Source: a virus. From it: DNA of 64,000 nt. The position numbers and the translations under genes were made by a program. The notes under the pieces were generated by a model. That model ran no database searches, had not been told where the DNA came from, and saw only the letters and a program-made list of their open reading frames with translations. The stretch is from the IMG/VR virus record IMGVR_UViG_3300032132_000001, positions 42,573 through 106,572 of that record; one strand, written 5' to 3'. Position 1 is the first letter of the stretch; each line of letters opens with the position of its first letter. Shown one piece after another: positions 23,597-48,351 of the stretch.

Positions 23597-23815
23597 TTAT
23601 TTCTTCCGATATGTGATGCGACCCTTAGTCAAGTCATACGGTGATAGCTCAACCGTTACCTGATCACCAGGGAGCACCTTGATGTAGTTCTTGCGCATCT
23701 TGCCTGAGAGGTGGCACATAACCACATTGCCGCCCTCCAACATGACACGGAACCGCGTGTTAGGTAACGCCTCGGTCACCTCGCCTTCTACGACAATCGG
23801 TTCTTCTTTAGCCAC
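23597..23815 (-). CDS. infA: translation initiation factor IF-1
   Basis: 72 aa near full-length match to bacterial IF1 ([23 protein letters not shown]...[34 protein letters not shown]). Confidence 0.9.
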
Positions 23816-23820
23816 TGTCC

Positions 23821-24399
23821 TTAGTCCTTGATGGTATACTTCTTGTAGAGTTCAACATCGTTCAGCTGACTGTGAATCTCTTCGGCCCAGAGGTGAGATG
23901 CCCCACTGCCATCCTCCCCGACACCAGGCTCGTTCTTGGAGGTCCAGACCGCGAAGTTCCAATACGGCGGGAACTTCTCATTGTTGTATCGTTGCACCAT
24001 CCCACGGAACTGCTGCCATGGGACACCGTGCTTCTGTCGGCGGTACGCCGTCATCGGATCGACCGGGATCTCAATGATTTCGTGGCCGTACCCGAAAGAG
24101 TTGGCGACCGAGATGTACGGTGCAAGCTCGATAGCACCGAGGTTCGTGTTATCCACGATCACGAACTTGAACTGGTTGCCAAGCGCTTCGATATACTTGC
24201 TCATGCATCGAGCGTGCGCTTGAGGCAGCTTGCCTCGCTTGAAGTCGTACTTCAAGCTTCCGTCTTCCTCTTCGCTGTAGAAGAAGTGGTCGGCTGACAC
24301 CACGACCACACTCCCTTTGCTTCTCTTCTCGATGATCAACTTCTTCACCAAGGTGGACTTCCCTCCACCTGGTACGCTCCTCGGCAGAATAACGTGCAT
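23821..24399 (-). CDS. P-loop kinase, polynucleotide 5'-kinase-like (AAA_33/T4 Pnk kinase-domain-like)
   Basis: Walker A PGGGKST, downstream VVSADHF and VIVDNTNL. Confidence 0.55.
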
Positions 24400-24885
24400 A
24401 GTTCCTTACCTCTCCTTAACTTGCCGCACCGGGCCTTTGCTTGCCCCACACAACCTCGACGCGCCGCACCAGACCGCTTATCGCTTCGTATGATTCTTTG
24501 GGACATCCGGAATGTCGAACCACCAGATAACATCAACCGGGTTGAGCTGCTGACGGAAGTGGTCATAGTACTGAATTCCATCGAACAACACAACCTTCCT
24601 AACTAGCGGTGGGTTGTCAGAATCTCGATATGCGATCAAGATCTGTTTCAATACTGGCGGTACAACTTTTCTCGGACATTTCCACATAGAGACTCCTGTC
24701 TGAAGGAAGGTGGTGAGACCCAGGGTCTGCACAACTGGGGAGCTTTATTGCAGTCGCCTAAATAAGAGGCCGCACCTTATCTCCCTGGTCCTATGACCGG
24801 CATCCCACTGGACTCAACGTCCAGGTGTCGTGCCCACGGTTCGTGCCCCGCAGGGTCCACGCAATCTCACCACCCTTGAAGTTAT

Positions 24886-25509
24886 CTAGCTAACTTGCTC
24901 TTCACCCTTGTACAGACAGGACACGATCTTGAAGGTCCCGTAAGGGCCAGGGCTGGGAGAGCTGGGTCGGTAGTCACCGATGCCCTTGCGTCGTCCAGCG
25001 ACCTCCATGCAGTTGATCAGACCTTCGACGGTGACTTCTTCACCGGTCATCATCAACTGGAACGCGAGACGCCAACCTGCCGGCATCTTCGTACGATAGC
25101 GGTACTGGTGACCGCCACCCTTCAACTTGACGTGGCGCTGGTCGATCCAACCACGCTTCTCCACGTCCTCCAGCTTGAATGGCTTCCCGTCCCAGAGGAA
25201 CCGGGGCATTTCAGGCAGGATGTAAGTGCAGGCCGGGATCAGCGTCTTGTAGGTCTCTCGACCTGACGCCTTGACCTTCGCACCAGCAGACGAGAGACAC
25301 CGAGCGAGGTTGGCGAAGGGGACGACGACAAACCCTTCGGCGTCCGTGTACGTCTTCACTTTCCACTCGTCGGGATCACCCATCACTGCCGATCCTGTCT
25401 TTTTCTGCTTCCCCTCGGTGTCAACCACCGCAAAAGCATTGAGGAGACAAGGCTGGTAGCCTTCGATGATGAAATCAAGATGCTCATTGTCCATGATGGA
25501 CTCCTTCAC
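24886..25509 (-). CDS. hypothetical protein
   Basis: track ORF; long GGTNAGG-repeat leader upstream. Confidence 0.45.
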   Translation of the reverse strand: MKESIMDNEHLDFIIEGYQPCLLNAFAVVDTEGKQKKTGSAVMGDPDEWKVKTYTDAEGFVVVPFANLARCLSSAGAKVKASGRETYKTLIPACTYILPEMPRFLWDGKPFKLEDVEKRGWIDQRHVKLKGGGHQYRYRTKMPAGWRLAFQLMMTGEEVTVEGLINCMEVAGRRKGIGDYRPSSPSPGPYGTFKIVSCLYKGEEQVS

Positions 25510-25606
25510 TTCCCCATTTGGGGAGAACCATAGTGCCTTACCGCACCGTGCCGAATCTGACCGCGCCTGACCATACTCTACCTGACCGGGCCCGGCCGCG
25601 CCCTAC

Positions 25607-26149
25607 CTAATCGGGTTGCTTCCCACGCCGACGCCGTTGGCGCCTGCTTGGAAGAGGCGGCTTCACTTCGCCGCTCTGCTTGGAACGACGTTCCAGAGCA
25701 GTGACGCGCTCTTCTAGATCATCGGATTTGCGTTCTTGTTCTCGCATCCGATTGTCCAACTCAATGATGGCGTTAGTCATCACGTATTGGTCGCCCTTGA
25801 CTGATTTCAGCTGCTCTTCAGTCAAGTTCTGTTTGTCTACGTGGGTCGCTTCATGCTGACCCTTCTTCAGCTGCCGCCGCGCTCTCTTGCGACGCAACTT
25901 GATCATCGCTGGGACATCCTCAGGAATCGCGATTTTATACCCCACCCTGGGTACGTTCTTCGCGATAGTCCCAATTTCCTCTACCAGACGATGGTTGGCT
26001 GTGTAGAACGGGCTGCGTCCAGACTTGAATTCCCGCCCTAAGAGTTCATCCAGCTGTGCGTACGTGACGACATCGCCGGGTTCCTTATCCTTGAGGAAGT
26101 TGAAGATCATCTCAGCTTCCGCAACATCACCTTTTGGTGTAAATGGCAT
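25607..26149 (-). CDS. hypothetical protein with basic coiled-coil C-terminus
   Basis: track ORF. Confidence 0.45.
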   Translation of the reverse strand: MPFTPKGDVAEAEMIFNFLKDKEPGDVVTYAQLDELLGREFKSGRSPFYTANHRLVEEIGTIAKNVPRVGYKIAIPEDVPAMIKLRRKRARRQLKKGQHEATHVDKQNLTEEQLKSVKGDQYVMTNAIIELDNRMREQERKSDDLEERVTALERRSKQSGEVKPPLPSRRQRRRRGKQPD

Positions 26150-26820
26150 TAGATCTTGTCCTTCAGACGCCCAGCAATATAACTGAGCGCTTTGATATCG
26201 ATGACCCTAGAGCTTACCGCTTTGCGCAGAGCCAGAGAGACAGCGATTGCCGGATCTTCTTCTTGCGGGATAAGCATCGCCTTATCCTTCCAATACTCGC
26301 AAGACTCACGCATCGCCCTTTCGAACTCGACGGGTGACATCATGGTGTCGGTGCCACCGTCCATCCCAAAGTGGTTGGCACAGAGAGTCATAGGGTGGAT
26401 TGGCTCCGGTCCCTCGGTTGCACGAGCGTTGACTGAGACAATCTCCCAGTTTCCTGGGCTTGCGGGTTGTTCGTTGTCACCGTCCTCAGCAAGCACGATG
26501 CTCTCATAAAGGATGATGTCCACGGCCTTGGCTGGAAGGGCTGCACCAGGCGTCCTCACCTGCTTGCGGGGCTCTTCCCCCTCCCGCCGAGCCTCGTATC
26601 GCCCGATAAGCCTGGCTCCAGGCTCCAGCTTGGTCACACCAGAGTAGATGCCGTCCGGTATGATGGGGACGACGAGGACACCGTTCCGGTATCCGGCCCC
26701 AGCATATCCGAAACGTGAAATAGTCCGCCGGATTACCTCTTCCCAGGAGACCTCTGGATAAGAAAATCCAGTTCCCTTGTAATGTCGGTTCCTTGCGAAC
26801 GAGTTAACGATGATTTTCAT
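26149..26820 (-). CDS. hypothetical protein
   Basis: track ORF trimmed to MKIIVNSF (ATG 26818-26820). Confidence 0.45.
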   Translation of the reverse strand: MKIIVNSFARNRHYKGTGFSYPEVSWEEVIRRTISRFGYAGAGYRNGVLVVPIIPDGIYSGVTKLEPGARLIGRYEARREGEEPRKQVRTPGAALPAKAVDIILYESIVLAEDGDNEQPASPGNWEIVSVNARATEGPEPIHPMTLCANHFGMDGGTDTMMSPVEFERAMRESCEYWKDKAMLIPQEEDPAIAVSLALRKAVSSRVIDIKALSYIAGRLKDKI

Positions 26821-26979
26821 TGACCTTTCCTTGGTTTGCTCCGGGTGAGGTGCCACTTCCAACAGTACGGACACTCATAAGTGTACAGCTTCATTGTACG
26901 GCCAGCTGCATCTTTTAGTGCGTCCTGTTCTGTGTTGTGCGCCACTTTACCCTTACAGGTCTTCTTGTAATCGAAACTG

Positions 26980-27399
26980 CTATTGAAGTCCATCGTTCAA
27001 CGATTCTATCACGTCAGCAACCATTGGATGTTCTAGTTCGCTCGCCAAACTCAATTCGCCTTCCAATCTATCGACTCCCTTATGGGTGTCTCCGACCTTC
27101 CTTGCCAGCTCACCTTGAAGCATGGCAATTTTTCGGCGAATCTCATCTTTCCTCTTCTCTCTTGCCCGATACTCTTTAATCTCGGTGCAAGGATGCCTTT
27201 CTTGTTCGGCTTTATAGTTGGGTACGAATTGCAGTTCGTACCCACATAAGAATTGTCTGTTCTCCCATCTTGTCCCGTTGGTGTGATATCTGATCTCGCG
27301 CGACTGGTGGTAGGGATAAGAAGAAATACCAATCTCTTCTTTCACCACCTCTTCACACTCACAATGAGGACAAGCTGCAGTTGTGACAAATTTCAGCAT
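26980..27399 (-). CDS. Cys-containing hypothetical protein
   Basis: track ORF. Confidence 0.45.
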   Translation of the reverse strand: MLKFVTTAACPHCECEEVVKEEIGISSYPYHQSREIRYHTNGTRWENRQFLCGYELQFVPNYKAEQERHPCTEIKEYRAREKRKDEIRRKIAMLQGELARKVGDTHKGVDRLEGELSLASELEHPMVADVIESLNDGLQ

Positions 27400-27656
27400 T
27401 AGTCTTTCTGATGATCTTCCGGATCTTGTTTGCCGTGGTAGATGAAGTAAGCTGTCATACCCGCAACGACCAGAGCCATAACGATCCCAATGACCATTGT
27501 GAAACCGGCTGCTTCTTGGTAGTACTTCACATCATCGAAATGGGAACATCCAGCAGCCCCTGCCCAGATGAACATCACCACGACGATTGAAGCTTTGATC
27601 AGGGTGCGGATCACTTCAAACTGTTGAGAGTGAGTCACCTTTTCAGAATAGCTCAT
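27399..27656 (-). CDS. small membrane protein (2 TM)
   Basis: track ORF. Confidence 0.45.
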   Translation of the reverse strand: MSYSEKVTHSQQFEVIRTLIKASIVVVMFIWAGAAGCSHFDDVKYYQEAAGFTMVIGIVMALVVAGMTAYFIYHGKQDPEDHQKD

Positions 27657-29020
27657 TTCAACTCCTTCTTAGCCCATTCCATGGCCGATTCTTGGTCAGC
27701 GAAGGCTCCGTCCATCTGAGCTTCGTACGCTTTCTTCAGAAATACGCCAAGCTCTTTACTAGGCTCCATCAGCCCAGCCTCGATCAGATCACGGCCGTTG
27801 AGGATTCGCTTCGCGCCTTCATTGAGCACGCGCTTCTCACTTGCGATCTCAAGCATCCGAAGGCAGTTCTCCGACTTCCCACGAGGAAGAGGGGGGCGAC
27901 CAGAGTGGTCAGCTTCACACAGCCGTGCAAGCTCTACGATGCTCGCCGGCTCCAAACGCTTGGCAAGACGACGGACAGCTCTCGACGTAGCCGCTTGGTT
28001 GTGCGCCATGTGGTTCCCGACCATGGGCAGGATCTTATCCTTGTACTTCTTGTGACACCCAATTGAGTCCAGGAACTCTTCTGCGATAGGCACACCACCA
28101 CGCTCATGACCACGTGATCTCCACCTGCCATCTTCGAACTTGGTGTACTTTGCCTTGCCGACGTCATGGCACAGAGCGGACAGCACCAACATGCCACGAT
28201 CTTCCACATCAAGCTCGTCACGGATGGCGATTTCTGCTGCGGCATCGACCACGAACTTGGTATGAGTCCAAGCGCAGCCTTCAGGATGCCACTCGGGATC
28301 CTGAGTCACTCCGATCAGAGCGGTGAGCTGCGGGTAGAGATCGAGCCAGCAGGTGTCCTCCAGGAAGACCAGGCCAGAGCTTGGTTTGATGGACTTTGTT
28401 GCCCATTTCCACCACTCTTCCCACACTCGCTCAACAGGAAGGTCTTTGTACTCATCCTTCAGCGTGTTGCAGAGATGCGACGTGTCTGCCCAGACCGCCA
28501 TGTCAAATCGCCCTGTGAACTGCATCCCTCGCAGCACACGAAGAGGATCTTCGGCGAAAGCTGGAGATGTGTGGCGGAGGAGACCGTACTCGATATCCTT
28601 CAGCCCTTTGAAGAAGTCCAGTGTCTCGCCGGTCAGTGGATCGAAGGCTAGGGCATTCATGGTGAAGTCCCTGCGAGACGCCGCTTCCTCCGGTGTCATC
28701 GTCGGGTCGGGGTCCACCATGAAGCCCTTATGCCCACGCCCTCGCTTGCTCTCTCGTCGGGGAAGAGAGACATCGAACTCAACGCCACCTTCCTTGTACT
28801 TGAGTACGCCGAAGCTCTTGCCTACCGCATCGACCTTGCCCTTAGATTCCAGGAGTTCTTGGAGCTTATCGGGGCTCATGCCGTAGACTTCGACGTCGAT
28901 GTCCTTCCAGTCCTTGTTTCCCATCTGGGAATCTCGGACGGCACCGCCCACAACCAGGACACGGGCAGCGCCGTTCTCGGTCAGGTACCGAGCTAGTTCC
29001 TTGATCTTTTTCATGTCCAT
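27653..29020 (-). CDS. cca: tRNA nucleotidyltransferase (CCA-adding enzyme), class II head domain plus HD domain
   Basis: VVGGAVRD...DIDVEV head motifs, RRDFTMNA, HD..GK; start moved to MDMKK (ATG 29018-29020) after GAGGTG. Confidence 0.8.
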   Translation of the reverse strand: MDMKKIKELARYLTENGAARVLVVGGAVRDSQMGNKDWKDIDVEVYGMSPDKLQELLESKGKVDAVGKSFGVLKYKEGGVEFDVSLPRRESKRGRGHKGFMVDPDPTMTPEEAASRRDFTMNALAFDPLTGETLDFFKGLKDIEYGLLRHTSPAFAEDPLRVLRGMQFTGRFDMAVWADTSHLCNTLKDEYKDLPVERVWEEWWKWATKSIKPSSGLVFLEDTCWLDLYPQLTALIGVTQDPEWHPEGCAWTHTKFVVDAAAEIAIRDELDVEDRGMLVLSALCHDVGKAKYTKFEDGRWRSRGHERGGVPIAEEFLDSIGCHKKYKDKILPMVGNHMAHNQAATSRAVRRLAKRLEPASIVELARLCEADHSGRPPLPRGKSENCLRMLEIASEKRVLNEGAKRILNGRDLIEAGLMEPSKELGVFLKKAYEAQMDGAFADQESAMEWAKKELK

Positions 29021-29028
29021 GTTCACCT

Positions 29029-29343
29029 CTACGACAGGAAGTCTTTGAAAGCTCTTTGCCACTGGTCCAGATCCAAGAGCTTCAGTTGGTCTTTGGGGAA
29101 CGATTTGATGCACAGATCAGGTTCGTCCAACCCGTTATGCTGGTACTTGCCTTCCTTGAAGATCAAACCAGTCACTGGCAGATCGTCTTCGATCTCCAGA
29201 TCCCACAAGTACAACTCGATGACGGTGTCTCTTGTGGCAGTCATCTCGATGGCGGAGCGAGCTTGCTCTGGAGTGATCTCCTGCATTTCTTCGAAAGGAA
29301 GCTCTTCTCCACCGCACCAAAAGTATGCAATATGCTTAGTCAT
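29029..29343 (-). CDS. hypothetical protein
   Basis: track ORF trimmed to MTKHIAYFW (ATG 29341-29343). Confidence 0.4.
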   Translation of the reverse strand: MTKHIAYFWCGGEELPFEEMQEITPEQARSAIEMTATRDTVIELYLWDLEIEDDLPVTGLIFKEGKYQHNGLDEPDLCIKSFPKDQLKLLDLDQWQRAFKDFLS

Positions 29344-29622
29344 CGGTAACCTCTTGCTGTTTTGATGACCGCTAGTAGGAAAGCAGCAACCATAATCAGG
29401 AAGATCAGGGCCAGCCATCCAGGATTGAGTTCCGGCATTTGCGCCTCCCGGAGAGGCGGGCAGAGGGCCGGGATGCATCCGGGAACCCACCCCAGATATG
29501 CCTGCCGCGCCCTCCGCCTCCACCTAACCTTTAGGGATATAGCAACCAAACCACCCAGGCGATGAGGAGTTCATCGATGGGGAGAATGACGATGACTGCT
29601 AGGGCTCCCATCAACCGGCGCA

Positions 29623-30138: not shown

Positions 30139-30227
30139 CGTGCAGTTCCCTTTATTTCCCCAACGAGGGGAGACATAGTAAGAGCCCGCCATTTGACGGG
30201 CTCTTGAAGACAGGTGCTAGTGATTGT

Positions 30228-30485
30228 CTAGCCCTTGGACTTCTTGCCCTTCTTTCCCTTCTTGCCCTTCTTCTTCGGCTTGGGCTCATCGCCCTCTTCC
30301 TCAGAAGTCTCCTCCTTGGGAGCCGTCTTCTTCTTGATGGCCTCAGCGTATCGCTTTCGGCCAGTGCCTTTGCACCAGTTCAAGAACCAAGGACTAGGAA
30401 GCCCAGGGCCTCCCTCCACCGTCTTGATTGCATCATCTGGGTGCATCTCACCAGAGCGCACCAACTCTCTAAGACCCTTTGCCAT
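30228..30485 (-). CDS. hypothetical protein with poly-Lys C-terminal tail
   Basis: track ORF. Confidence 0.4.
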   Translation of the reverse strand: MAKGLRELVRSGEMHPDDAIKTVEGGPGLPSPWFLNWCKGTGRKRYAEAIKKKTAPKEETSEEEGDEPKPKKKGKKGKKGKKSKG

Positions 30486-30855
30486 CCTCGCCTCCCCATA
30501 GGAGATTCTCTACAATGTCGCCGAAATCGTTTCTCATGATGTCACAATCAACGATGGGCACACCATATTCTTCCAGTAACGCCTTCTGCTTGCCCCGCCC
30601 AGACGGGTTGTTGGAACACAGCAAAACTGGAATACTTAGCTCGACCAGGAATTTCTCAGCCACCAACATGCCACTCATCAGCGGCATATCGTGATCAAGA
30701 ATGATCAGGTCCCAAGGGTACGGCACCCTACGGAGGTAGAAGTCACACTGCTCGTCGCCATGGGCGAAAACCAGCGTCAAGTATCTCCGCTCCAGAAGGT
30801 GCCGTATCTTGGTGAACCGGATCGGCTGGTCGTCGATCCAGAGCACATGTTTCAT
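30469..30855 (-). CDS. stand-alone CheY-like receiver (REC) domain protein
   Basis: VLWIDDQ..., phospho-acceptor-like ILDHDMPLMSG, LLCS, conserved Lys region. Confidence 0.6.
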   Translation of the reverse strand: MKHVLWIDDQPIRFTKIRHLLERRYLTLVFAHGDEQCDFYLRRVPYPWDLIILDHDMPLMSGMLVAEKFLVELSIPVLLCSNNPSGRGKQKALLEEYGVPIVDCDIMRNDFGDIVENLLWGGEDGKGS

Positions 30856-30859
30856 CAGA

Positions 30860-31795: not shown

Positions 31796-31903
31796 TTAGT
31801 CCTCTTATATGCCGAGTAATTTTGCTCGGCTGTTTCCATTGAGATACGGCCAGGAGAGAGGGAGAGCCGCCCAACATGGCACGGCTCCCCTCTCCATGCC
31901 CTC

Positions 31904-33091
31904 TTACATCAGCGACAAGGCCATGTCGGCGATCTTGTCGAGGAAGTACGCCACGCAGTGCGTGCCGACCCAGAAGAGCTTCCACGCCGCCTGCTTGCGC
32001 TTGCCACGGCTCTCCTGAACGAGCTGTTCGTCCTGGTTGTACTCGATCAAGTCGGCCTTGTTGACGAAGATGCTGAGACCGTACTTGCCGAGGATGTTGA
32101 ACAGCCCACTATTGGTGAGCTGTTCCAGAACCTGAGTGAGCAGTTCCTTGTCCAAGCTTGGAACTTGGACGTCCATGCGCTTGCAACCAGGGCGTTCGGC
32201 GAAGTGCTGGTCAGCCTTCTTGACCAGGCTCGTGACCTCATCGCTGATCATCTTGTTGCGAACCGACTGGATGTGGTTCTGGCGGGCTTGGATGGTGGCG
32301 TCGGTGATGTGGCTCATGTCGTTCTCTTTTCTATAGCCATCTGTCAGATGGATAACAGGCAAACCCTTGAAGTCTTCAAGGTTCTCGTAGGACTGATTTT
32401 GCAGGATCTCTCGAAGATCCCCTCCCCAATCTCGCCTCTTGGCAGCTTCTACGCACTTCACCAGTGGACCAACACGAACGAAGTCGTGCCGCGCGGAAAA
32501 TGGAGTGGTCTTGGAGACTTCGTGGACAAGATGGGTGCGCCCATTCCTGTCCTCCCATATTGCAGTGGACACGCTAGCTTTCGCCGCCTCGTGACTGTAG
32601 AAGCCCCAGTACTCGTGTGGGCGGAGTTCTGGGTTCTTGATGTGAGCATCGTACGGGCGATGCCCCATATTCGGCAAGTCCCAACAGTCATCGGCGGCTT
32701 GTACCAAGCTTTGGTGCCACCTGTGCCCGTCGATGTCGTCTTGGAAGATCATCGCACTAGGGTGAGTGACGCTCTCATAGAGCCACTTCACCTCTTCCGG
32801 GAAGAAATGAACTGCGCTATAAGAGAATTCCGGCAGATCAGGATCTACCAACACCTCCCCATCGTCTGGAATTGGGGTGTGCTGGCTCCCAGTCCACGCT
32901 TGGTGGAGGAGGAGCGTGATCTTCCCATCCAAGGCTTGATCCACCTGGATGATCTGTCCACCAATCGCCTTCCTTGTGTGGAAGACGATTTTGACATTTC
33001 GCGCTGACCGAAGCACCCTTCTTACTTCCGTTGATGCCGATTGGAGGCGAGTGGAGGGCGTGTGCCGGTCCACCAGCAGCTTTTCTGTCAT
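31904..33091 (-). CDS. hypothetical protein
   Basis: track ORF, possibly two fused genes (candidate second start near MSHITDATI). Confidence 0.45.
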   Translation of the reverse strand: MTEKLLVDRHTPSTRLQSASTEVRRVLRSARNVKIVFHTRKAIGGQIIQVDQALDGKITLLLHQAWTGSQHTPIPDDGEVLVDPDLPEFSYSAVHFFPEEVKWLYESVTHPSAMIFQDDIDGHRWHQSLVQAADDCWDLPNMGHRPYDAHIKNPELRPHEYWGFYSHEAAKASVSTAIWEDRNGRTHLVHEVSKTTPFSARHDFVRVGPLVKCVEAAKRRDWGGDLREILQNQSYENLEDFKGLPVIHLTDGYRKENDMSHITDATIQARQNHIQSVRNKMISDEVTSLVKKADQHFAERPGCKRMDVQVPSLDKELLTQVLEQLTNSGLFNILGKYGLSIFVNKADLIEYNQDEQLVQESRGKRKQAAWKLFWVGTHCVAYFLDKIADMALSLM

Positions 33092-33100
33092 GTGTTATTC

Positions 33101-33367
33101 CTAGTAGTAAGTGTGTCGCCATTCCTGACCACACCTACGACACCCGTGGGCTTCACCACCAGTGTCAGGCGTGCACCATGAATCGACGCACTCTACGTCG
33201 TGCCCTTTCCATCGACACGTCAAGTCCAAGACGCTAGACTTGACATAGGACCAGAGCCAGCTGAGGAAGATCACCGCTGTGTGCGGCGGATCCTTACCTT
33301 CTTGCCAGGCGTACTGATGCTCCGCCTGCTCCCAACTCCGCCAATCTTGACGGATCGCTTCCAACAT
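33101..33367 (-). CDS. Cys/His/Trp-rich hypothetical protein; start codon lies inside the 14-mer motif
   Basis: track ORF. Confidence 0.4.
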   Translation of the reverse strand: MLEAIRQDWRSWEQAEHQYAWQEGKDPPHTAVIFLSWLWSYVKSSVLDLTCRWKGHDVECVDSWCTPDTGGEAHGCRRCGQEWRHTYY

Positions 33368-33378
33368 GCCACACCTCG

Positions 33379-34797: not shown

Positions 34798-34970
34798 CAG
34801 CTCATCTCGATCTGAGCAACGATGGCATACGAAAGCTTATTGCGCTCCATCGCATAATCTTCGGCATATTTGTCGAGGATTTGGGAGGGAGCGCGCACGC
34901 CTGGTTTATATTCCAGGGCCACGCATGGATCTCCTTCCCAACAGATGATAAACATCTTCTTATCGCTCAT
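34797..34970 (-). CDS. possible small protein MSDKKMFIICWEGDPCVALEYKPG...
   Basis: 57-codon ORF read by hand filling an apparent gap. Confidence 0.3.
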   Translation of the reverse strand: MSDKKMFIICWEGDPCVALEYKPGVRAPSQILDKYAEDYAMERNKLSYAIVAQIEMS

Positions 34971-35266
34971 TACCAGACATCCTCGCTAAACAGACCAACA
35001 TGTGCGTTCATTTGGTCTTCTTTCTTCACTTGGCCGGCAAGGCGAGCCAGCCGTGCAGCTGGCTTTCTGCGGACGAAGTCGCCGGATTCGGTCAGGAACC
35101 CCTGTTCCCTGTTGATCGGGGGTTTAATCCCTTTCTCCGTCACCATCATGTGAACGATGTCGGCGTGACGAGCAGGAGCAGGAAGGGAATACACCACGCC
35201 ATCCTTCCACAGGATCGCTGCGGCGACGATCTTACCGTAGTCTTTTCTCATTGGCCCTCCCAACAT
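34970..35266 (-). CDS. hypothetical protein; ATG is the ATG of the 14-mer motif (MLGGPM...)
   Basis: track ORF. Confidence 0.45.
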   Translation of the reverse strand: MLGGPMRKDYGKIVAAAILWKDGVVYSLPAPARHADIVHMMVTEKGIKPPINREQGFLTESGDFVRRKPAARLARLAGQVKKEDQMNAHVGLFSEDVW

Positions 35267-35272
35267 GACACG

Positions 35273-35827: not shown

Positions 35828-36021
35828 TCCATCCTCATCAGCATGCTGTAGATGTCCTCTACCGACAGCTTCTTCAGTTCCTTTCGCTTCTCACCAGGGA
35901 AGTGTGCCTTCCCCGGCTCACTCAGGATCATGGCTATCGCCTTCTGACGGAACGCCGTGAGGCATTCCTGTCGGTACAGCTCCACGGCTTCGTTTAGTTG
36001 ATCTGCGAGCCAGACGTCCAT
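35824..36021 (-). CDS. hypothetical protein
   Basis: track ORF. Confidence 0.4.
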   Translation of the reverse strand: MDVWLADQLNEAVELYRQECLTAFRQKAIAMILSEPGKAHFPGEKRKELKKLSVEDIYSMLMRME

Positions 36022-37178
36022 TAAGCATCTTCTCCTTCGTCGTGGAACGCGATGCCGCCGGTCGGCTTCAACATCTTCCAGATCTGCTCCTCGATCATCC
36101 GTCCGTCCAGCAAGCTGAACATGAGATGAGGATGGGTGCAGTTTTCCTTGATGTAGAGCGCTTGATCCTTCCGAGTGTCGGTCGGACCCTGAGGGACCTT
36201 CTTGATCTCGTTGGACGCCGCGAACCGGATCCGGTGAGCCGCCTCGTACAAGCCCATCGCCGTCTCAGTGAGCCAGTGATGGAACTCGTCCGGAACATCG
36301 ACGCCCAGGAGGATGTCCTCCTTGACCGTACCACCAGTCTTGAGGACTTCCCAGATCCGGCGAGGGGTCAGACCACAGAGGAGCTTGTGGCGGATCTTGT
36401 ACCACTCGAACTTGATCTTGATCCGCTGACCCGACGAGAACTTGAGGACGAAGCCCTCTCGGTTCTCTTCGTCCATCGCGTCGAGCTGAGCCGGGGTGAG
36501 GTGTTCGAGATCGTACCGCTTGCAGATCTCGAATAGCTGCTCGTTCTCCTGGTCTAGCCCAGTTGTACCATGCTGGATGCTCGTTTCACCCCAGGTGACG
36601 AATGTCGCCAGCTGCTCATAGGGGACTTCTGAACCGGACTCGGTGTGAATCACGGTCAGGAGGGTGAGCTTAGTGTTCGGACCGTAGTCAACCACGATCT
36701 GAGGCCGACCACCTTCCTTGGCGTAGATCACCTCGAAAAGGTAGGTGTAGTCGTGATGGAAAACGTCTTGAGGAAGAGCGTGGGCCGGGCAACAAACCCG
36801 GAGCAATTCTTCCCGACCGATCACCGATTGGTCCGAAGTGAAGCTACCTCGGGTCGCCGTCACCAGCTCACCCTTGTAGACGCAGGCGATGAACAGCGAA
36901 CCGTCCATCTTCTCCATCACCTCGAAGGTCTCGTTGGGTGCTTCCACCTCACCGAGGTTGAAGAACTTGCCGAAAGGACGTCCAACGATCTCCTTCGGCT
37001 TCCCGGTCTTCTCGGGGTCGGTCGTGATGAGACCGCGACACGTCTTGGTCGCCGCGTTCCACACCCGATCGAACTGCGTCTTTGGCGTGTAGTTGTGAAT
37101 GAGGAGAGGGAGGGTCGGATGGACCTGGGTCTTGATAAACCCTTCCTCTATCATCTTGTCAATCAGTTCCCAGTCCAT
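36021..37178 (-). CDS. ATP-dependent RNA ligase, T4 Rnl1 (gp63) family
   Basis: CRGLIT..GRPFGKFFNLGE...MEKMDGSL...EGFVLK...KIKFEWY align with Rnl1 CRGIMF..RPMEKFFNL..KEDGSL..EGYVAV..KIKSDWY; start MDWELIDK at 37176-37178 after GGAG. Confidence 0.8.
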   Translation of the reverse strand: MDWELIDKMIEEGFIKTQVHPTLPLLIHNYTPKTQFDRVWNAATKTCRGLITTDPEKTGKPKEIVGRPFGKFFNLGEVEAPNETFEVMEKMDGSLFIACVYKGELVTATRGSFTSDQSVIGREELLRVCCPAHALPQDVFHHDYTYLFEVIYAKEGGRPQIVVDYGPNTKLTLLTVIHTESGSEVPYEQLATFVTWGETSIQHGTTGLDQENEQLFEICKRYDLEHLTPAQLDAMDEENREGFVLKFSSGQRIKIKFEWYKIRHKLLCGLTPRRIWEVLKTGGTVKEDILLGVDVPDEFHHWLTETAMGLYEAAHRIRFAASNEIKKVPQGPTDTRKDQALYIKENCTHPHLMFSLLDGRMIEEQIWKMLKPTGGIAFHDEGEDA

Positions 37179-37180
37179 GG

Positions 37181-37441
37181 TTATTTCTCCACGTGCTCGC
37201 GTTCTGCGAGAATGCCCTTGATCAGGTCGTACCTCTCTTGCCAGCTCCGATAGCGGGCAGCATCTCCTTCGACCCAATCTTCATACGCAGCTGCACCACA
37301 ACCACAACTGCACTTTGAGGAAGAACTTCTGAGTGCCCTGACTTTCTTGAAGACGGCAAGAAGGCGCTTGGTAGGCAACTTCCTCAACTGCTCTTCCTTC
37401 AAGTCCAATGCGCCTTGGGGTTCCATGGTCGTCTCCAACAT
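37181..37441 (-). CDS. small hypothetical protein (start at motif ATG MLETTMEPQ, or 37426)
   Basis: track ORF trimmed. Confidence 0.4.
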   Translation of the reverse strand: MLETTMEPQGALDLKEEQLRKLPTKRLLAVFKKVRALRSSSSKCSCGCGAAAYEDWVEGDAARYRSWQERYDLIKGILAEREHVEK

Positions 37442-37452
37442 GGCACGGCTAT

Positions 37453-38133
37453 CTAGCCGTGCGTTCTCTTCATCTTCGCCAGCGGCTCGCTGCCATGCTT
37501 CATCGGGTCGTTGAAGTTGGTGGTGTGTCCACCTTCTGGGTTGCGATCCCAAGCGATGCAGTGCCGGATGACGTCCCGAAGGTCGCACATCTTCTTGGCC
37601 TCGTCGGGGACTTCGGGACTGGCGATGCCATAGAAGGCTGATCCGAGAGTGGGGAAGACAATTCCCTTCAGCTCTGCAAGCAGATCATCGACTCGACGCC
37701 AATCGATAGCGCCGAACGAATCACCCCGAAGCATGCTTCGGTGACGCATGACTGCTGCGATTTCACCGAGCTGTCCCATCATCAACCGATAGTACAAGTC
37801 CAACGCCCGATTGATGACGTCACCCTGTGTGCCGGTGATGGTGAGCTGGTATTCGCCCACTTCTTTTGCCTTTCTCCGTGTTCTTGCCTTGGGCGAGCAA
37901 CCCCAAGCCTCTGGAGTCAGCAGTGCGAACTCCATGTTGTCGAAGACCTCATCTTCGACAACAGCCCTTTTCTCCCCGGTGGCGCGATTCTGGATCATCG
38001 CCTCACCACTGGTGATGTGCGATAGGACATCGTCCACACGCTCATCACCAGGTGGGATGTAGAACACACCATGAAGCAAGTGAGCAAGCAGCACTGATAC
38101 TTGTACTCTCTGCACCATCTTGGGTTCCGTCAT
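37453..38133 (-). CDS. hypothetical protein
   Basis: track ORF. Confidence 0.45.
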   Translation of the reverse strand: MTEPKMVQRVQVSVLLAHLLHGVFYIPPGDERVDDVLSHITSGEAMIQNRATGEKRAVVEDEVFDNMEFALLTPEAWGCSPKARTRRKAKEVGEYQLTITGTQGDVINRALDLYYRLMMGQLGEIAAVMRHRSMLRGDSFGAIDWRRVDDLLAELKGIVFPTLGSAFYGIASPEVPDEAKKMCDLRDVIRHCIAWDRNPEGGHTTNFNDPMKHGSEPLAKMKRTHG

Positions 38134-38357
38134 CGTCGGCCCCTATTCCTTTGGCGGTTCTTCTTGCTGAAGAGATCCTTCCTCTTCTGCTCTACCGCTC
38201 GACGGGACGCCGCAGCATCTAGCATCTTGCGATGCTCCTCACCCAATTGATACAACATCGGGCCGATACTGTGGAGCTTGGGGATGTGGTCGGCGAAGAT
38301 GTCGAGGGCTTGCTTATCCCTCTGTTGCCGATCCCTCGTCTGTCTTGGGGTTTCCAT
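38130..38357 (-). CDS. hypothetical basic protein
   Basis: track ORF. Confidence 0.35.
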   Translation of the reverse strand: METPRQTRDRQQRDKQALDIFADHIPKLHSIGPMLYQLGEEHRKMLDAAASRRAVEQKRKDLFSKKNRQRNRGRR

Positions 38358-38574
38358 CGATCACCTCGTAATAATCCAGGGCTCTGATGGCACCACCACC
38401 GTACCCTGCACAGCGGAATGCGTCAGCCACCGCTTTTCGCTCTGTCTCACCCCAGCCGGTGACCTCTTCGGTCTTTCCGTCTAGCCAGTGGAGCCTGAAC
38501 TTGTATTGTTCTACGGTGCGCTTGAGTCTGGCACCGCCCGGCTCCCCTGGCCACGGAGGTCGTCCTAGTGGCAT
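38314..38574 (-). CDS. hypothetical protein
   Basis: start moved to MPLGRPPW (ATG 38572-38574) behind AAGGAGGTG. Confidence 0.4.
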   Translation of the reverse strand: MPLGRPPWPGEPGGARLKRTVEQYKFRLHWLDGKTEEVTGWGETERKAVADAFRCAGYGGGAIRALDYYEVIDGNPKTDEGSATEG

Positions 38575-38657
38575 AGCCACCTCCTTGTTAGGATTCTGTT
38601 CCAACGCGGGCAAGCCCGCCCCCAAAGGGGCGGGCGAGCTTACCCAGCTAGGAAGGA

Positions 38658-39068
38658 CTAGATGCAGTCGGCTTCCGACACGTCCGCACCGCCGTCCTCG
38701 ATCCGCTCGACCGTAGCCGAGACGAGAGCGATCGGGGTGGCCTTGTAGACGCGCTTACCCTTCTTGCCACCGACGCCAATCTTCGCCGCCTTACGCATAC
38801 GATCCCAGGCCGTCTGACCGGCTTCGTCCTGGTGATGCCGCCAGATGCCGACATCCTGCATGCGGAGCGTCGCTTCCTTCTTGTCCTTGAACCGGACAAC
38901 GAGGAGCAGATGGAAGTTACCCGGACGCGAGCCCAGGTGACCCTTCGGCGAACCGGCCAGACGCAGCAACTCCTGCAGGTTACAAACCCGCATCTGCTTC
39001 TGATCGTGCTCGACGATAGCTTCGGTAGTGTCGAACTTCAGGAAACCAACAGTCTTCTTCGAAGGCAT
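38658..39068 (-). CDS. P-family paralog 4 (MPSKKTVGFLKF leader, HHQDEAG core, acidic tail)
   Basis: track ORF. Confidence 0.5.
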   Translation of the reverse strand: MPSKKTVGFLKFDTTEAIVEHDQKQMRVCNLQELLRLAGSPKGHLGSRPGNFHLLLVVRFKDKKEATLRMQDVGIWRHHQDEAGQTAWDRMRKAAKIGVGGKKGKRVYKATPIALVSATVERIEDGGADVSEADCI

Positions 39069-39266
39069 GGGAACTCCATGTTCTTAGGCGAAGAAGTCCT
39101 ACTGGAGGCGGGACCTCCCCGCCCAACCTAGCTTCCCCTGCTCAAGCTTGAGCGGGGATTTGTGTCCCACAACATGTGGGAGCACAACATTCGGCCGTGA
39201 GACCGAATGCTGTTGACATTGACACAACGCCGATCGACGAGTGCCTGTCAACATGCCACGAATGGC

Positions 39267-39342
39267 TGGCGGGTCATACGGGATTTGAACCCGCAACACA
39301 CGGTTTTAGAGACCGTTGCTCTACCAATTGAGCTAATGACCC
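39267..39342 (-). tRNA. amber-suppressor tRNA (anticodon CTA, reads UAG), class I, CCA encoded
   Basis: GGGTCATTAGCTCAATTGGTAGAGCAACGGTCTCTAAAACCGTGTGTTGCGGGTTCAAATCCCGTATGACCCGCCA; perfect 5-bp anticodon stem ACGGT/ACCGT, loop CTCTAAA. Confidence 0.75.
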
Positions 39343-39658
39343 AGGAGGAGTGGTGGACCTTTCTCATCAACCGAAGGTGAAGAGCCTAGGTTCACCCCCG
39401 ACGCGGATACTCGATTAAGTGGACCCCGTAGCAACGACGACACACCCCCACCACTCCTTGACTAAGAAGAAAGAAGAGCCGACCTTCAGGTGAGAAGACG
39501 TATAACAAACTTGTCCCCCTTTACCGGTCACTCACCCCGGCGATCAACCCAGAGCGGATCAGGAACTTAGGCGGGCTCGGACGTCTCCCTCGGCTCTTCC
39601 TTCCAATACGCCGCAGCCCGACCCCCATACAGCAGGGTCGGGCATTGGCTAGGAGTTG

Positions 39659-40528
39659 TTAGGCCGTCTTGCGACCCTTCTTCCCCTCACGCTTCTCGGC
39701 GGCGATGATCTCGAACGCCTCGTACAGCGCGTTCTTCTTCCGCGCCACCTTGCTGCGCTGTCGTGGCGGGCTCTCGATCTGCAGCAGGTGCCGCCAGCCG
39801 GCGGGGGTGAGTCCGCTTGCCGTGGGCTGTCCACTGCTGGGACGCTCGAACATGACGGGCATCTGTGCGGCCCGCGCGTCACGCCGCGCCTGCGCTTCCA
39901 CCTCACGCGCCTCGCGGCGCAGAGCGTCACGCTCCCGCTTCTTCTCCTGCCGGGACACGTCGTCCTCGGCCAGCCGCTTGGCCAGCATCGGCTTCGCGCC
40001 GCCGTGGTGGAGTCCGCGCTTGACGCACAGCTCCTTCAGCTTGCCGGTCGCGTCCTTCTCGTACCGCTTGGCGAACTTCGCCACCAGCTTCTGCCGCTTC
40101 CGCCGATCCTTCTCCTCCTGGCTGATGCCGGGACGGAAGAAGCGGTCGCAGTAGAACCGCAGCTGGCTGTCGGAGAGGGAGGCCGGTCCCCACCCCTTCG
40201 GTGCGTCTTCGACGTTGCAGAACAGCGTCCTCTTCAGCGCGGCGATCTTGTCGCTCTCCATGCGGAGCGCGAACAGGAGCGCCTTCCGCTCCAGCGGGTC
40301 GCCCTTCTTGACCGCCCGCACGCCCTGGACCAGGACGAGCTTCGCGATCTCCTTGGCGGCCTGGTTCTGGCCACTGGCCTTCTTCGCCTCGGCGATACGC
40401 TGCGCCTTCGACGGGCCGGTCTTCTGCGGAGCGGCCTGCTGGTTGCTCCGCTTCTTCCGACGCGCCTTCTTCCGCTCGCGACCCAGCTTTCCCTTCTCTG
40501 CGTGCTGCTTCTCGTTCTTCGACGACAT
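39659..40528 (-). CDS. highly basic Lys/Arg/Ala-rich hypothetical protein
   Basis: track ORF in locally GC-richer DNA; preferred over antisense ORF 39656..40582. Confidence 0.45.
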   Translation of the reverse strand: MSSKNEKQHAEKGKLGRERKKARRKKRSNQQAAPQKTGPSKAQRIAEAKKASGQNQAAKEIAKLVLVQGVRAVKKGDPLERKALLFALRMESDKIAALKRTLFCNVEDAPKGWGPASLSDSQLRFYCDRFFRPGISQEEKDRRKRQKLVAKFAKRYEKDATGKLKELCVKRGLHHGGAKPMLAKRLAEDDVSRQEKKRERDALRREAREVEAQARRDARAAQMPVMFERPSSGQPTASGLTPAGWRHLLQIESPPRQRSKVARKKNALYEAFEIIAAEKREGKKGRKTA

Positions 40529-40670
40529 GTCATTCCCCTGGTAGGGACTTCTCGGTTACAACGCCCACAGTTGGGCAATTGATTCATTGTTCGGTTGACC
40601 AGGGTTGGACACAGCACGCTTCCAACAGCTTGTATCCCGTCCCAACATGGGACGGGCACAAGCCAAGGAA

Positions 40671-40898
40671 CTAAACTTCGTATTCGAGGATGTCGATGGT
40701 GACGAGCCAGTTCCACGACTCACCACCTTCCCACGAACCTTCTTTCTCTTCAGTGAAGGTGAGATTGGTATCGTCTATCTCCTTCTGGACGATACCACGA
40801 GCCTCGGCAGGATCTCGGGTCACATCGACCACACGACCGTCACCACCATCGACGCCGTGGTTGTCCGATCGGTGGATGACGTAGACCTTCACTTCCAC
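40671..40898 (-). CDS. hypothetical acidic protein
   Basis: track ORF. Confidence 0.4.
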   Translation of the reverse strand: MEVKVYVIHRSDNHGVDGGDGRVVDVTRDPAEARGIVQKEIDDTNLTFTEEKEGSWEGGESWNWLVTIDILEYEV

Positions 40899-41167
40899 GG
40901 CCGGGAGTACGGCTGTGCCGGATCGTATTCCGGATTGGGTTCGGGGATTCGAAGCTCACCGATCCTCTCGTACGCCGTGTCCTCGACCAAGCACGACAGC
41001 CGGTGGATCTGCCAGCTGAGGTAGTCGAACGGCCTGGTGAGCCAGTACGACGCCTCTTGGACGAGCCGGCTGGCCCGATCCAGAGTGAGGACGATCAGTT
41101 GCCAGAACAGGCGGTACCGCTGCTTGCTGGGGTTCATTGAACCCTCCTTGTAGGGGTTTCGTTCCAA
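40889..41167 (-). CDS. hypothetical protein (likely start MNPSKQRYR at 41137)
   Basis: track ORF; AAGGAGGG RBS. Confidence 0.4.
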   Translation of the reverse strand: MERNPYKEGSMNPSKQRYRLFWQLIVLTLDRASRLVQEASYWLTRPFDYLSWQIHRLSCLVEDTAYERIGELRIPEPNPEYDPAQPYSRPWK

Positions 41168-41216
41168 CAGGGCTTATCCCGCTCCCTGGTGGGAGCGGGC
41201 ATCACCCTTGAGATTC

Positions 41217-41609
41217 TTAGCCGGCGAGAACCTCATCGATCTCACGTTCCAGCTCCTTCTGAGCCAGCACCGCCGCGTAGACCTCGCTGTGGTACTCGTC
41301 CCGCAGCACCATCGGTGCGTCCGGGTTGAGTGCCAGCTCGATCTTGCTGACGATGTGGTCGTGGGGATCCTCGCCGAAGAGATCGTCGGCGATAGCCTTG
41401 GCGGTGAAGAGGCGCATCTCGTCCACCGGGACGGTCCCGTTGACCGGGAACTCACGGCGCTGGACCGTCTTCCCCTTGGCCCTGACCTCGATGCCGACGA
41501 GATCGCCGTAGGTCGTCTTGGGTGACTGACACGAGAACCTCTCGGGCGTGATCAGAGCGATCACGTAGCCGAGGAATCGCATGCCGGCACCAGTCTTGGG
41601 GTTACGCAT
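41217..41609 (-). CDS. hypothetical protein; 9-codon upstream ORF beginning at motif ATG
   Basis: track ORF. Confidence 0.45.
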   Translation of the reverse strand: MRNPKTGAGMRFLGYVIALITPERFSCQSPKTTYGDLVGIEVRAKGKTVQRREFPVNGTVPVDEMRLFTAKAIADDLFGEDPHDHIVSKIELALNPDAPMVLRDEYHSEVYAAVLAQKELEREIDEVLAG

Positions 41610-41743
41610 AGAACAAACACTCCTGGGTCTAAGTTACGTGCAGATGGACACAACGCCCAACATGTCACGCTAATGGGACCAAGGCAAGCCTTGGCCTCGC
41701 CACCTGTGTGAGTTAGGAGCGAACACAGGATCGCTCGTCCAGA

Positions 41744-42058
41744 TCAGTCGTCATGTGGACCCATTCTGGACTGATGGGATGGTTCTGACTCAGGCAGTTT
41801 GGGTTTCACCAACCTCGCCTTGAGTCTGTCGATTCCGATCCTGCCACAGGCTCGGATGCAACCCTTGCACCCGCAGCAGTTCACCGCTTCTCGCATCCCA
41901 GTTGGGCGATGGAGAAGACGGACAACCCCTCGGGCAGGGTGATTGCACCCCGGTGCCGCGCAGACAGGTCTCGGTTTCAGCGTCGGTCCGTTGATGCAGT
42001 AGGAGTTGGCGGGGACCGGCAAGACCGCCAACAAGCACAATACGATCAGTTTCTTCAT
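41744..42058 (-). CDS. secreted Cys-rich protein with signal peptide
   Basis: MKKLIVLCLLAVLPVPANS followed by many Cys; start moved to ATG 42056-42058 behind GGAGGTG. Confidence 0.5.
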   Translation of the reverse strand: MKKLIVLCLLAVLPVPANSYCINGPTLKPRPVCAAPGCNHPARGVVRLLHRPTGMREAVNCCGCKGCIRACGRIGIDRLKARLVKPKLPESEPSHQSRMGPHDD

Positions 42059-42254
42059 GGTCACCTCCAACAGGCTAAATCCCGCCCCCTGATGGGGGCG
42101 GGCAGATCAGTTTAGCCGTTGATCCATGACTTGGCGGATACGATCTCTCTTCTTTCTGATCTCACCGCCTTGCTTGAGCGCCTTGCGGATCGCCTCCTCA
42201 TCGTAGAGACAGAGGAGGAGACCGCTCGGCATCGCAACCACGATCATTCTCATC

Positions 42255-42497
42255 TCACTCTCCTTTGCAGCGGAAGGGGATCTTGGAGCAACCGAAGAGT
42301 ACGTTGCCGAAGATCAGGTACCAGTGGAGCCCGTCCTTGACAGCCGAGTTCAGCATGATCCCAACCAGCGTGTCGGCGCACATGGAGTTGGTTTTCCCTC
42401 CACCGTCTCCGTTGTCGTAGTAGGCGGTCAAGTGGTGGCCGATGCTATCCTTGATCTCGGCCACAGTTGACACCCCACTGTGCAGCTCGCGGCTCAT
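42255..42497 (-). CDS. hypothetical protein
   Basis: track ORF. Confidence 0.35.
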   Translation of the reverse strand: MSRELHSGVSTVAEIKDSIGHHLTAYYDNGDGGGKTNSMCADTLVGIMLNSAVKDGLHWYLIFGNVLFGCSKIPFRCKGE

Positions 42498-42928
42498 GCT
42501 TCCGCCCCGATCAGCTTACCGTCGAGATGGTCCATCTCGTGCTGCATCACCCTGGCTTCCCACGGTGACTGGGACTGGTGCCGCTTCTTCCGTCCCTTGG
42601 AGTCCTCGTACTCGATGAGGACGATGGGGAAGCGCAACACCTTGACGGCCCTGTCGGGGAGGGAGAGGCAGCCTTCGATGGCGTACTCCCGCTTGCCCCT
42701 GGCCCTGTGCAACACAGGGTTGAAGAAGACGCGTTCCATCCCCTTCACCCCACTGGCGTTCATCACGAAGAACCGCCGAGTGATGCCAACCTGCGGTGCG
42801 GCCAGACCAGCTCCGTTCGCCGCATACATCAGGCCGATCATCTCACGGACGGTATCGTCGTGGACGCTTGGATCCGCATGGGAGCACACTTGCTCCAGCA
42901 CAGGATCCGGATGGATGACGATTTTCAT
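42494..42928 (-). CDS. def: peptide deformylase
   Basis: GxGLAAPQVG, EGCLSLP and HEMDHL motifs; start MKIVIHPD at 42926-42928 behind GGAGG. Confidence 0.85.
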   Translation of the reverse strand: MKIVIHPDPVLEQVCSHADPSVHDDTVREMIGLMYAANGAGLAAPQVGITRRFFVMNASGVKGMERVFFNPVLHRARGKREYAIEGCLSLPDRAVKVLRFPIVLIEYEDSKGRKKRHQSQSPWEARVMQHEMDHLDGKLIGAEA

Positions 42929-48340: not shown

Positions 48341-48351
48341 GTACGTATAAT

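Follow-up and report, generated by a model that had tools for sequence, protein, structure and literature searches.

Many huge phages carry genes for IF1 and IF3, factors that act in translation initiation, and peptide deformylase is among the genes for later steps of translation that they encode (Al-Shayeb 2020, PMC7162821). The occurrence of IF1 and IF3 in huge phages is repeated in a soil study from 2025 (PMC11748809). The C-terminal region that interacts with the ribosome is typically missing from viral deformylases, which are nonetheless able to complement an Escherichia coli def mutant (PMC5591237). The DNA described here is a stretch of 64,000 nucleotides (positions 42,573 to 106,572 of IMG/VR record IMGVR_UViG_3300032132_000001), referred to as the window, in which genes for IF1 (infA), a peptide deformylase (def) and a Pth2-type peptidyl-tRNA hydrolase are located on the minus strand (Table 1). 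Judged from their sequences, these genes are probably working auxiliary translation genes of a huge phage. This set of genes is already documented in huge phages, and the finding is mostly ordinary apart from the replacement of His30 in IF1; the novelty implied in an earlier note on this DNA was overrated because huge phages were already reported in 2020 to have IF1 and deformylase.

The IF1 of the window is intact. The earlier note described it as near full-length, but residues 1–71 align with E. coli IF1 (chain 9fco_I, E = 1.4e-27), an end-to-end alignment that makes it a full-length protein, with 65% identity. As in the E. coli factor, there are 72 residues, an OB fold and conserved 30S contact residues, and no column that is invariant across the bacterial and phage proteins has changed. 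The published contacts of IF1 with the 30S subunit comprise A16, P18, position 20, R23, R41, R/K46 and R/K64 together with a lysine near the N terminus, H/Y35, G38, K39, position 42, R66, Y60 and D61 (10.1101/2023.10.27.564398). Every contact with h44, the 530 loop and uS12 is identical in the window IF1 (P18, R23, G38, K39, R41, Y60, D61, R66 and R70) or conservatively replaced (K46 and K64), and a protein with these residues would be expected to bind the 30S subunit and stimulate initiation. The gene is tightly packed in an operon-like arrangement, with a GTG start that lies 5 nt past the stop of the upstream gene and is preceded by AAGGA, and a stop that overlaps the ATG of the next gene (TAATG). 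No frameshift or internal stop is present in IF1, the deformylase or Pth2, and their catalytic or contact residues are kept, as had been judged previously by eye for infA and def. The phage gene differs from E. coli infA in its GTG start, in a codon for Asn where that for His30 would be, in the absence of ribosomal or housekeeping genes next to it and in holding a 13-nt phage element in codons 23–27. The protein is 72–77% identical to many bacterial IF1s; the best matches with a named source are from Spirochaetota, Gemmatimonadota, Desulfuromonadota and Gammaproteobacteria (69–77%). The best matches of IF1 and the deformylase are scattered over several phyla and no single donor lineage emerges. 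The regions around both genes were scanned for sigma-70 promoters and for intrinsic terminators, and neither rose above shuffled controls.

Families in PHROGs match all three proteins, and IF1 is also carried by Lak megaphages, LR756511, Sinorhizobium phage Phosso and Bacteroides DAC-type phages. The IF1s of huge phages (Al-Shayeb 2020, Lak, LR756511 and Phosso) resemble that of the window in being full-length, single-domain proteins from genomes of several hundred kb, in having tRNAs, tRNA-repair enzymes, Pth2 and deformylase encoded in the same genomes, and, for most of them, in lacking His30. The window IF1 is 54–67% identical to these phage proteins as compared with 72–77% for bacterial IF1s, and being closer to the latter it probably represents a separate acquisition. 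A profile scan of IMG/VR identified at least 547 stretches that code for IF1. Of the best 80, 32 are on contigs of at least 100 kb and one has a ribosomal-protein neighbor. In contrast, IF1 matches are found in only 36 of the 50,697 INPHARED records, some of them host contamination, so that the view that phage IF1 is rare holds for phages overall but not for large phages. The neighbors of IF1 vary between viral loci. Of the 80 loci, 3 (L095, L139 and L152) have a deformylase gene no more than 6 kb from IF1, about 2 kb downstream and on unrelated-looking contigs, and in the isolate Phosso (L004) the annotated IF-1 and deformylase genes (16148–16366 and 24938–25456) are ~9 kb apart; together, these loci indicate that the two genes recur together in phages. 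One record labeled as a phage (L090, CAKLQH020000005.1, "Acinetobacter phage MD-2021a") is bacterial DNA with infA amid truA, ansA and leuBCD, and short unannotated records of "Listeria/Enterococcus/Staphylococcus phage" with IF1 or def matches may also be host contamination. Such contamination inflates the phage IF1 counts for the collection concerned.

The deformylase contains the three motifs GAGLAAPQ, EGCLS and QHEMDH, as stated in the earlier note, and none of these positions varies in alignments of 8 and of 59 sequences. The longest open reading frame (ORF) extends over 42494–42982 and encodes 162 residues; the start at 42928 (MKIVIHPD) has AGGAGG 8 nt upstream and corresponds to the form in public protein sets (P0121). 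An AlphaFold2 model, with a predicted local distance difference test score (pLDDT) of 96.1 and a predicted template modeling score (pTM) of 0.90, superimposes in Foldseek on the solved structures of type 1B deformylases with TM scores of 0.85–0.93 and root mean square deviations of 1.4–2.3 Å. The last helix of the model is the motif-3 helix (residues 122–135) with none after it, and the tail beyond the HExxH sequence is 10 residues long, whereas that of the E. coli enzyme has 32 and the 119 best homologues have a median of 24. In the model, the enzyme therefore lacks the ribosome-docking C-terminal α3-helix of type 1B deformylases of the E. coli kind. Intact motifs and a missing C-terminal region fit the minimal viral type, and the protein is predicted to be active.

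The deformylases of Vibrio phage Vp16 (5mtc) and cyanophage S-SSM7 (3uwa) likewise comprise a three-motif core with no α3-helix, and in the alignment the window chain stops 4 residues beyond the end of the Vp16 enzyme. The identity to these two proteins is only 32–36%, and the C terminus (...GKLIGAEA) differs from that of Vp16 (...VTI), so that the "offset" mechanism of Ile137 in Vp16 is not to be assumed for the window enzyme. Its nearest relatives in sequence are of the bacterial type. Among 5.8 billion proteins, the nearest relative besides its own copies is 48% identical, and the relatives at 44–48% are from Planctomycetota, Omnitrophota and Rhodobacterales (Alphaproteobacteria). The retention of all invariant positions at no more than 48% identity argues for long purifying selection.

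Pth2 had been mentioned as lying alongside the other two genes. It is a genuine family member, but it is located 22 kb outside the span from infA to def. The best solved match is the Pth2 of Methanocaldococcus jannaschii (2zv3, E = 4.5e-18), with which the GK...AQGxHA and DxGxT segments align; the Lys, Asp and Thr positions in these segments are those that we take to be catalytic. The protein matches phrog_1866 and is 50–53% identical to the copies in huge phages LR756511 and LR745208. The Pth2s of phages Atu_ph07, RsoM2USA, Myrna and Baka are of the same family (PF01981, phrog_1866) and length and are 47–53% identical to it; as compared with these jumbo-phage and mycobacteriophage proteins, the window gene differs in adjoining a tRNA-Asp gene in a tRNA-rich block. 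No functional data were found for any phage copy of Pth2.

As auxiliary genes, the three would allow the phage to supply its own parts for translation, so that the synthesis of phage proteins would stay fast when the host supply fails or is attacked. IF1 would sit in the host ribosome's 30S A site by way of its bacterial-type contacts with h44, the 530 loop and uS12, and the additional copies would raise the ratio of factor to ribosome and accelerate the formation of 30S initiation complexes on phage mRNAs led by Shine-Dalgarno sequences. A 3-fold rise in initiation factors is described as shifting translational selectivity in cold-shocked E. coli (PMC6511846). The deformylase, as a free-standing catalytic core, would deformylate the flood of new phage proteins without docking of a C-terminal helix at the exit site, and Pth2 would free tRNA from peptidyl-tRNA that has dropped off or is blocked at its N terminus. 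Several points weigh against this interpretation. Expression of the genes, binding to the host ribosome, enzyme activity and a benefit to the phage are inferred, and a dosage benefit is assumed for a single small factor that is accompanied in the window by neither IF2 nor IF3. The fit of IF1 to the ribosome was judged on published contacts and not on those of an identified host. IF1 and the deformylase show no sequence variation between separate assemblies, hence there is no dN/dS value for either. No clear capsid, terminase, portal or tail gene is present in the 64-kb window or its readable flanks. Finally, IF1 has Asn at position 30, where cellular IF1s have a near-invariant His, and an altered function is possible. 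Two alternatives that do not exclude the auxiliary role, relief from host defense and an altered IF1, are worth weight.

The first of these concerns the surroundings of the genes. The minus-strand block (~1–47 kb) encodes, in addition to tRNAs, a kinase that resembles polynucleotide kinase (PNK) directly upstream of IF1, a T4 Rnl1-type RNA ligase, a CCA-adding enzyme, a Thg1-like protein, a SpoU methylase, two phosphoesterases and an alarmone hydrolase located two genes downstream of IF1, which among solved structures best matches the (p)ppApp hydrolase 7smg (E = 3.5e-20). The description of the block as a heavy investment in translation was a fair one, and much of it looks like tRNA repair and relief from alarmones. 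The block may therefore serve mainly to repair or bypass abortive-infection attacks on translation, a possibility that we regard as unlikely but deserving of attention. The ligase, kinase, CCA enzyme and Thg1 could conceivably mend cleaved or trimmed tRNAs. The hydrolase might, on the same tentative basis, remove (p)ppApp or (p)ppGpp that toxic synthetases produce, with Pth2 perhaps stripping N-acetylated or peptidyl groups from tRNAs, and it is possible, though not probable, that IF1 and the deformylase replace host factors that have been depleted or blocked. The presence of the repair enzymes and phosphoesterases on one strand together with the tRNAs is consistent with this, as are the position of the hydrolase and the gene for a protein like poly(ADP-ribose) glycohydrolase (PARG), which is possibly an anti-defense enzyme directed against ADP-ribosylation. 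An alarmone hydrolase and an RNA ligase lie within 6 kb of IF1 in 2 of the 80 viral loci, but the neighborhood of IF1 is not conserved across these loci. We know of no defense system that targets IF1 or deformylase. In favor of a role in relief from defense, the tRNAs and RNA ligases of jumbo phages have been linked to preventing or reversing tRNA cleavage (2026 review, PMC13282480). Relief from defense overlaps the auxiliary role and does not exclude it.

The window contains 10 tRNA genes, as identified by both ARAGORN and Rfam: 9 ordinary ones, not 10 as previously counted, and one with the anticodon CTA. The latter, an amber suppressor, has a body that we take to be tRNA-Trp-like from its anticodon arm, short variable loop and G73, by comparison with E. 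coli tRNA-Trp. The suppressor tRNA is thus real, but it is not a sign of recoding within the window: TAG ends 41 of the 141 ORFs (29%), about as often as TAA or TGA, and the genes are tightly packed under the standard code. As an ordinary stop in these ORFs, TAG is not recoded in the window.

The second alternative concerns His30, which is present in 115 of the 120 closest database proteins listed (2 of which are this phage's own IF1), in 136 of 150 cluster representatives and in 78 of 80 metagenome loci. In a background protein set its frequency is 306/325 (94%) and in loci from named bacterial genomes it is 77/80 (96%). Among distinct viral IF1s, it is present in only 18 of 68 (26%); these are from the best 80 of at least 547 IMG/VR stretches and are neither phylogenetically independent nor controlled for host lineage. 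The difference between viral and cellular proteins gives p = 3e-32 (Fisher) against the background set and p = 2e-20 against the named genomes, the loci from which are 60–71% identical to the window IF1 as compared with 53–67% for the viral loci. His30 is a family habit of cellular IF1 and not a formal criterion of membership. Seven curated phage IF1s include one with His30, and no other column with conservation of 85% or more is changed in them as often as column 30. The published 30S contacts do not include position 30. Replacement of the aromatic residue 44, and of Arg46 by Lys or Gln, is likewise common in viral IF1s; the window IF1 has Lys46 but keeps H35 and Tyr44, the latter being replaced in most viral IF1s. 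Two IMG/VR contigs of 430 and 120 kb (L002 and L003) encode IF1s (10001–10237 and 10001–10234, respectively) with insertions of 3–5 residues in the loop that contains position 30, which are absent from the window IF1. In both, a metallophosphoesterase related to that at 54677–55216 of the window is encoded close to IF1. A systematic loss of His30, often with that of Tyr44, in virus-encoded IF1s that retain the residues touching the 30S subunit appears from these alignments, and no earlier description of it was found.

An IF1 of this type might still bind the 30S A site and, without His30, have a different interaction with another partner, be it IF2, IF3 or the 50S subunit as it arrives. Instead of adding to the ordinary IF1, it could then modify initiation, for instance by being released more slowly or by changing the selectivity for start sites; both suggestions are doubtful at present. 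His29 of E. coli IF1 was reportedly implicated in 50S-induced ejection in work by Gualerzi et al. in 1989, which serves here as a lead only, and searches of the library consulted gave nothing on the role of His29/His30. Support for an altered function comes from the difference between viral and cellular sets, the changes in the curated phage proteins and the location of position 30 away from the 30S contacts. However, a few percent of cellular IF1s have Asn, Pro or another residue here (Pro in that of Thermus thermophilus), and the variety of viral replacements (N, P, A, I, T, F, S and Q) resembles relaxed constraint more than directed change. The window IF1 also retains Y44 and H35, at positions that viruses often change, and the limits of the viral sample noted above apply. 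It is accordingly with some skepticism that we consider virus-encoded IF1s as a functionally distinct class, in which the A-site residues are kept and His30, mostly with the aromatic residue 44, is shed. The corollary that an altered interplay with IF2, IF3 or the 50S subunit lets phage IF1 bias or accelerate initiation rather than top up the host factor is an equally speculative one.

The earlier note proposed that extra IF1 favors phage mRNAs with ATGTTGG at their start and with no leader or nearly none, which is highly improbable. ATGTTGG makes up the 3' half of CGTGNCATGTTGG, an element of 13 nt of which there are 20 copies with no more than one mismatch as compared with 0.31 expected, all on the minus (coding) strand between 3821 and 46881. 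They are found inside ORFs, including an exact copy in that of IF1, directly 5' of the gene for tRNA-Leu(gag), 6 nt 3' of the CTA tRNA gene and in intergenic hairpins. The intergenic copies are often at the hairpin apex, with the ATG at the apex and an energy of about −32 kcal/mol. The hairpins listed in Table 1 have energies of −31.6 to −33.2 kcal/mol (z of −3.5 to −6.6), and their stem sequences differ between copies. That at 42957–43005 (−31.9 kcal/mol, z = −6.4) lies between the stop of the gene upstream of def and the def ribosome-binding site. Another short repeat, (C)CTGTTGGAA, is present 13–16 nt downstream of ATGTTGG in the copies at 42982, 44021 and 40648. The element may be a phage-specific promoter, processing site or terminator; sigma-70 or intrinsic-terminator signals near it were not above chance.

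In favor of the proposal are the enrichment of ATGTTGG (25 copies as compared with 7.3 expected, 22 of them on the coding strand), its ATG being the first codon of ORFs at 33367, 35266 and 39254, and the low frequency of Shine-Dalgarno motifs in the plus block (47.5–64 kb), which is 30%. The ATG of the copy at 42976–42988 is 54 nt upstream of the def ATG and in frame with it, so that an extended 162-residue isoform of the deformylase may exist. However, the motif belongs to an element that is also found within ORFs, beside two tRNAs and at hairpin apices, and 5 of 8 intergenic copies open an ORF of only 4–9 codons from their ATG. A Shine-Dalgarno-like motif precedes 62% of the minus-strand genes of at least 80 codons, as compared with 8% of control internal ATGs, and is also present ahead of IF1 and def. 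Leaderless initiation has been tied to IF2 and a 5'-terminal AUG and is antagonized by IF3, with no role given for IF1 (PMC4611024).

That the window is part of a huge-phage genome of ~397 kb is strongly indicated. Two contigs, one of 397,419 bp and one of 395,473 bp, are recorded as encoding a protein identical to its IF1; the 99% identity listed for the latter reflects V in place of M at the GTG start only, so that the protein is the same. Records of the identical deformylase (P0121) come from JGI, Logan and ENA, with 397,419 bp as the longest contig, and the Logan assemblies of run SRR9663116 also hold identical copies of both proteins. In the metagenome scan with IF1, the 395-kb JGI contig was not among the matches. 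The genes around IF1 and def are short, tightly packed and encoded on one strand with overlapping stops and starts. Most of the ORFs belong to no known family, and neither ribosomal-protein nor housekeeping genes are present near IF1 and def in the window or its readable flanks. The best matches of the Thg1-like protein and Pth2 in phage records are the uncultured huge phages LR745206, LR745208 and LR756511 (44–54% identity), with LR745206 (54%) and LR745208 being those of the Thg1-like protein. The GC content and that of third codon positions (GC3) of IF1, def and Pth2 are within the spread of the neighboring genes; GC3 values like those of the neighbors speak against recent capture. A 154-residue ORF contains a Gp23-like stretch that scores above the Pfam cut-off, but the match covers only 41 residues (profile positions 283–323 of 376) and is too short for a capsid protein. 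A megablast comparison of 22 kb with 50,697 phage records gave zero matches. The view that the DNA is cellular or plasmid, or that the genes are freshly captured passengers drifting to loss, is most improbable: it draws on the lack of capsid, terminase and tail genes in the window and readable flanks and on the closeness of IF1 to bacterial IF1s, and is contradicted by the absence of ribosomal-protein or housekeeping neighbors, the many ORFs of no known family, the identical IF1 on two contigs of nearly equal size, the huge-phage matches of Thg1 and Pth2, the Gp23-like stretch, the GC3 values, and a deformylase whose identity to cellular homologues does not exceed 48% and which appears from its sequence to have intact catalytic motifs.

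The coordinates of these and other features are collected in Table 1. Public gene calls place the start of the alarmone hydrolase at 23366; the longer ORF has an N-terminal CxxC...CxxC segment ahead of the HD domain. An exact look-up of the CCA enzyme in its 486-residue form was empty because public calls use a start that gives 455 residues. In tblastn, 723 phage records match the Rnl1-type ligase. A precomputed Pfam match of T4_Y16D to 34970–35266 was not reproduced in our own Pfam scan, and no relatives of an unannotated 395-residue protein (31904–33091) were found in IMG/VR or the metagenome collection. GC content is 46–50% in the plus block (47500–64000) and 50–61% in the minus block (1–47000), along which GC3 climbs from 0.58 to 0.77. 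Some of the starts in the plus block have a TATAAT-like sequence directly upstream, for example those at 48352 and 49101. This block also encodes a family of paralogous small proteins with a D-P-(D/S)-(F/Y)-x-P-D-G-I-like motif, and a second repeated N-terminal sequence, M-x-P-(D/E)-(E/K)-(I/L)-A-(K/E)-(I/L)-L-(T/S)-(E/D)-D-P-D-V-L, is present at 49101, 51478 and 55220.

Table 1. Features of the 64-kb window, with positions numbered from its first nucleotide
Feature	Position	Strand	Match or remark
infA, IF1, 72 aa, GTG start	23597–23815	−	PF01176, 93 bits (cut-off 30.2), residues 9–70 of 72
def, peptide deformylase, 144 aa, minimal form	42494–42928	−	PF01327, 121 bits
Pth2-type peptidyl-tRNA hydrolase, 124 aa	1309–1683	−	PF01981, 98 bits, profile 2–115 of 115
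P-loop kinase (AAA_33, PNK-like), directly upstream of IF1	23821–24399	−	PF13671, 41 bits; phrog_2071, phrog_505 (polynucleotide kinase)
55-aa ORF between IF1 and alarmone hydrolase	23430–23597	−	Public gene call; no Pfam match
Small alarmone hydrolase, RelA/SpoT-type HD domain	22815–23429	−	PF13328 HD_4; phrog_990, 5e-35
CCA-adding tRNA nucleotidyltransferase with HD domain	27653–29020	−	PF01743, PF01966; phrog_2244, 3.9e-69
T4 Rnl1-type RNA ligase	36021–37178	−	PF09511, 73 bits; phrog_562, 1.1e-52
Thg1-like tRNA-His guanylyltransferase	6378–7199	−	phrog_4717, 9.7e-86
PARG-like, microbial-type poly(ADP-ribose) glycohydrolase catalytic domain	8846–9679	−	PF10021, 141 bits
tRNA, anticodon CTA (amber suppressor)	39267–39342	−	ARAGORN; Rfam tRNA model, 72.6 bits
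13-nt element CGTGNCATGTTGG, example sites	23737–23749, 31871–31883, 42976–42988, 44973–44985	−	
Exact element copy CGTGTCATGTTGG inside IF1 ORF, codons R23-V-M-L-E27	23737–23749	−	
Hairpins with element at apex	42957–43005, 43995–44045, 44950–45005, 31850–31905, 40620–40675	−	
Peptidase_M50 (site-2 protease-like) membrane protein	19988–20815	−	
DUF3228 protein	26149–26820	−	
Receiver-domain-like protein	30469–30855	−	27.9 bits, just under Pfam cut-off 30.2
ORF, 154 aa, Gp23-like stretch	58173–58637	+	T4 major-capsid family, 34 bits, above Pfam cut-off
D-P-(D/S)-(F/Y)-x-P-D-G-I-like paralogues	49754–50086, 52814–53170, 53167–53502, 53502–53810, 57868–58176	+	
D-P-(D/S)-(F/Y)-x-P-D-G-I-like paralogue	63079–63417	−	

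Taken as it stands, the window adds one more huge-phage genome to the list that has accumulated since 2020 and leaves the view of how phages take over translation unchanged. The minimal deformylase is a further natural example of an enzyme that, from its model, lacks the ribosome-docking helix. The comparative value lies in the residue pattern of viral IF1s, which differs from that of cellular IF1s at a position outside the 30S interface. With 72 residues, phage IF1 offers a cheap entry to the question of whether the translation factors of phages are spare parts or modified tools.

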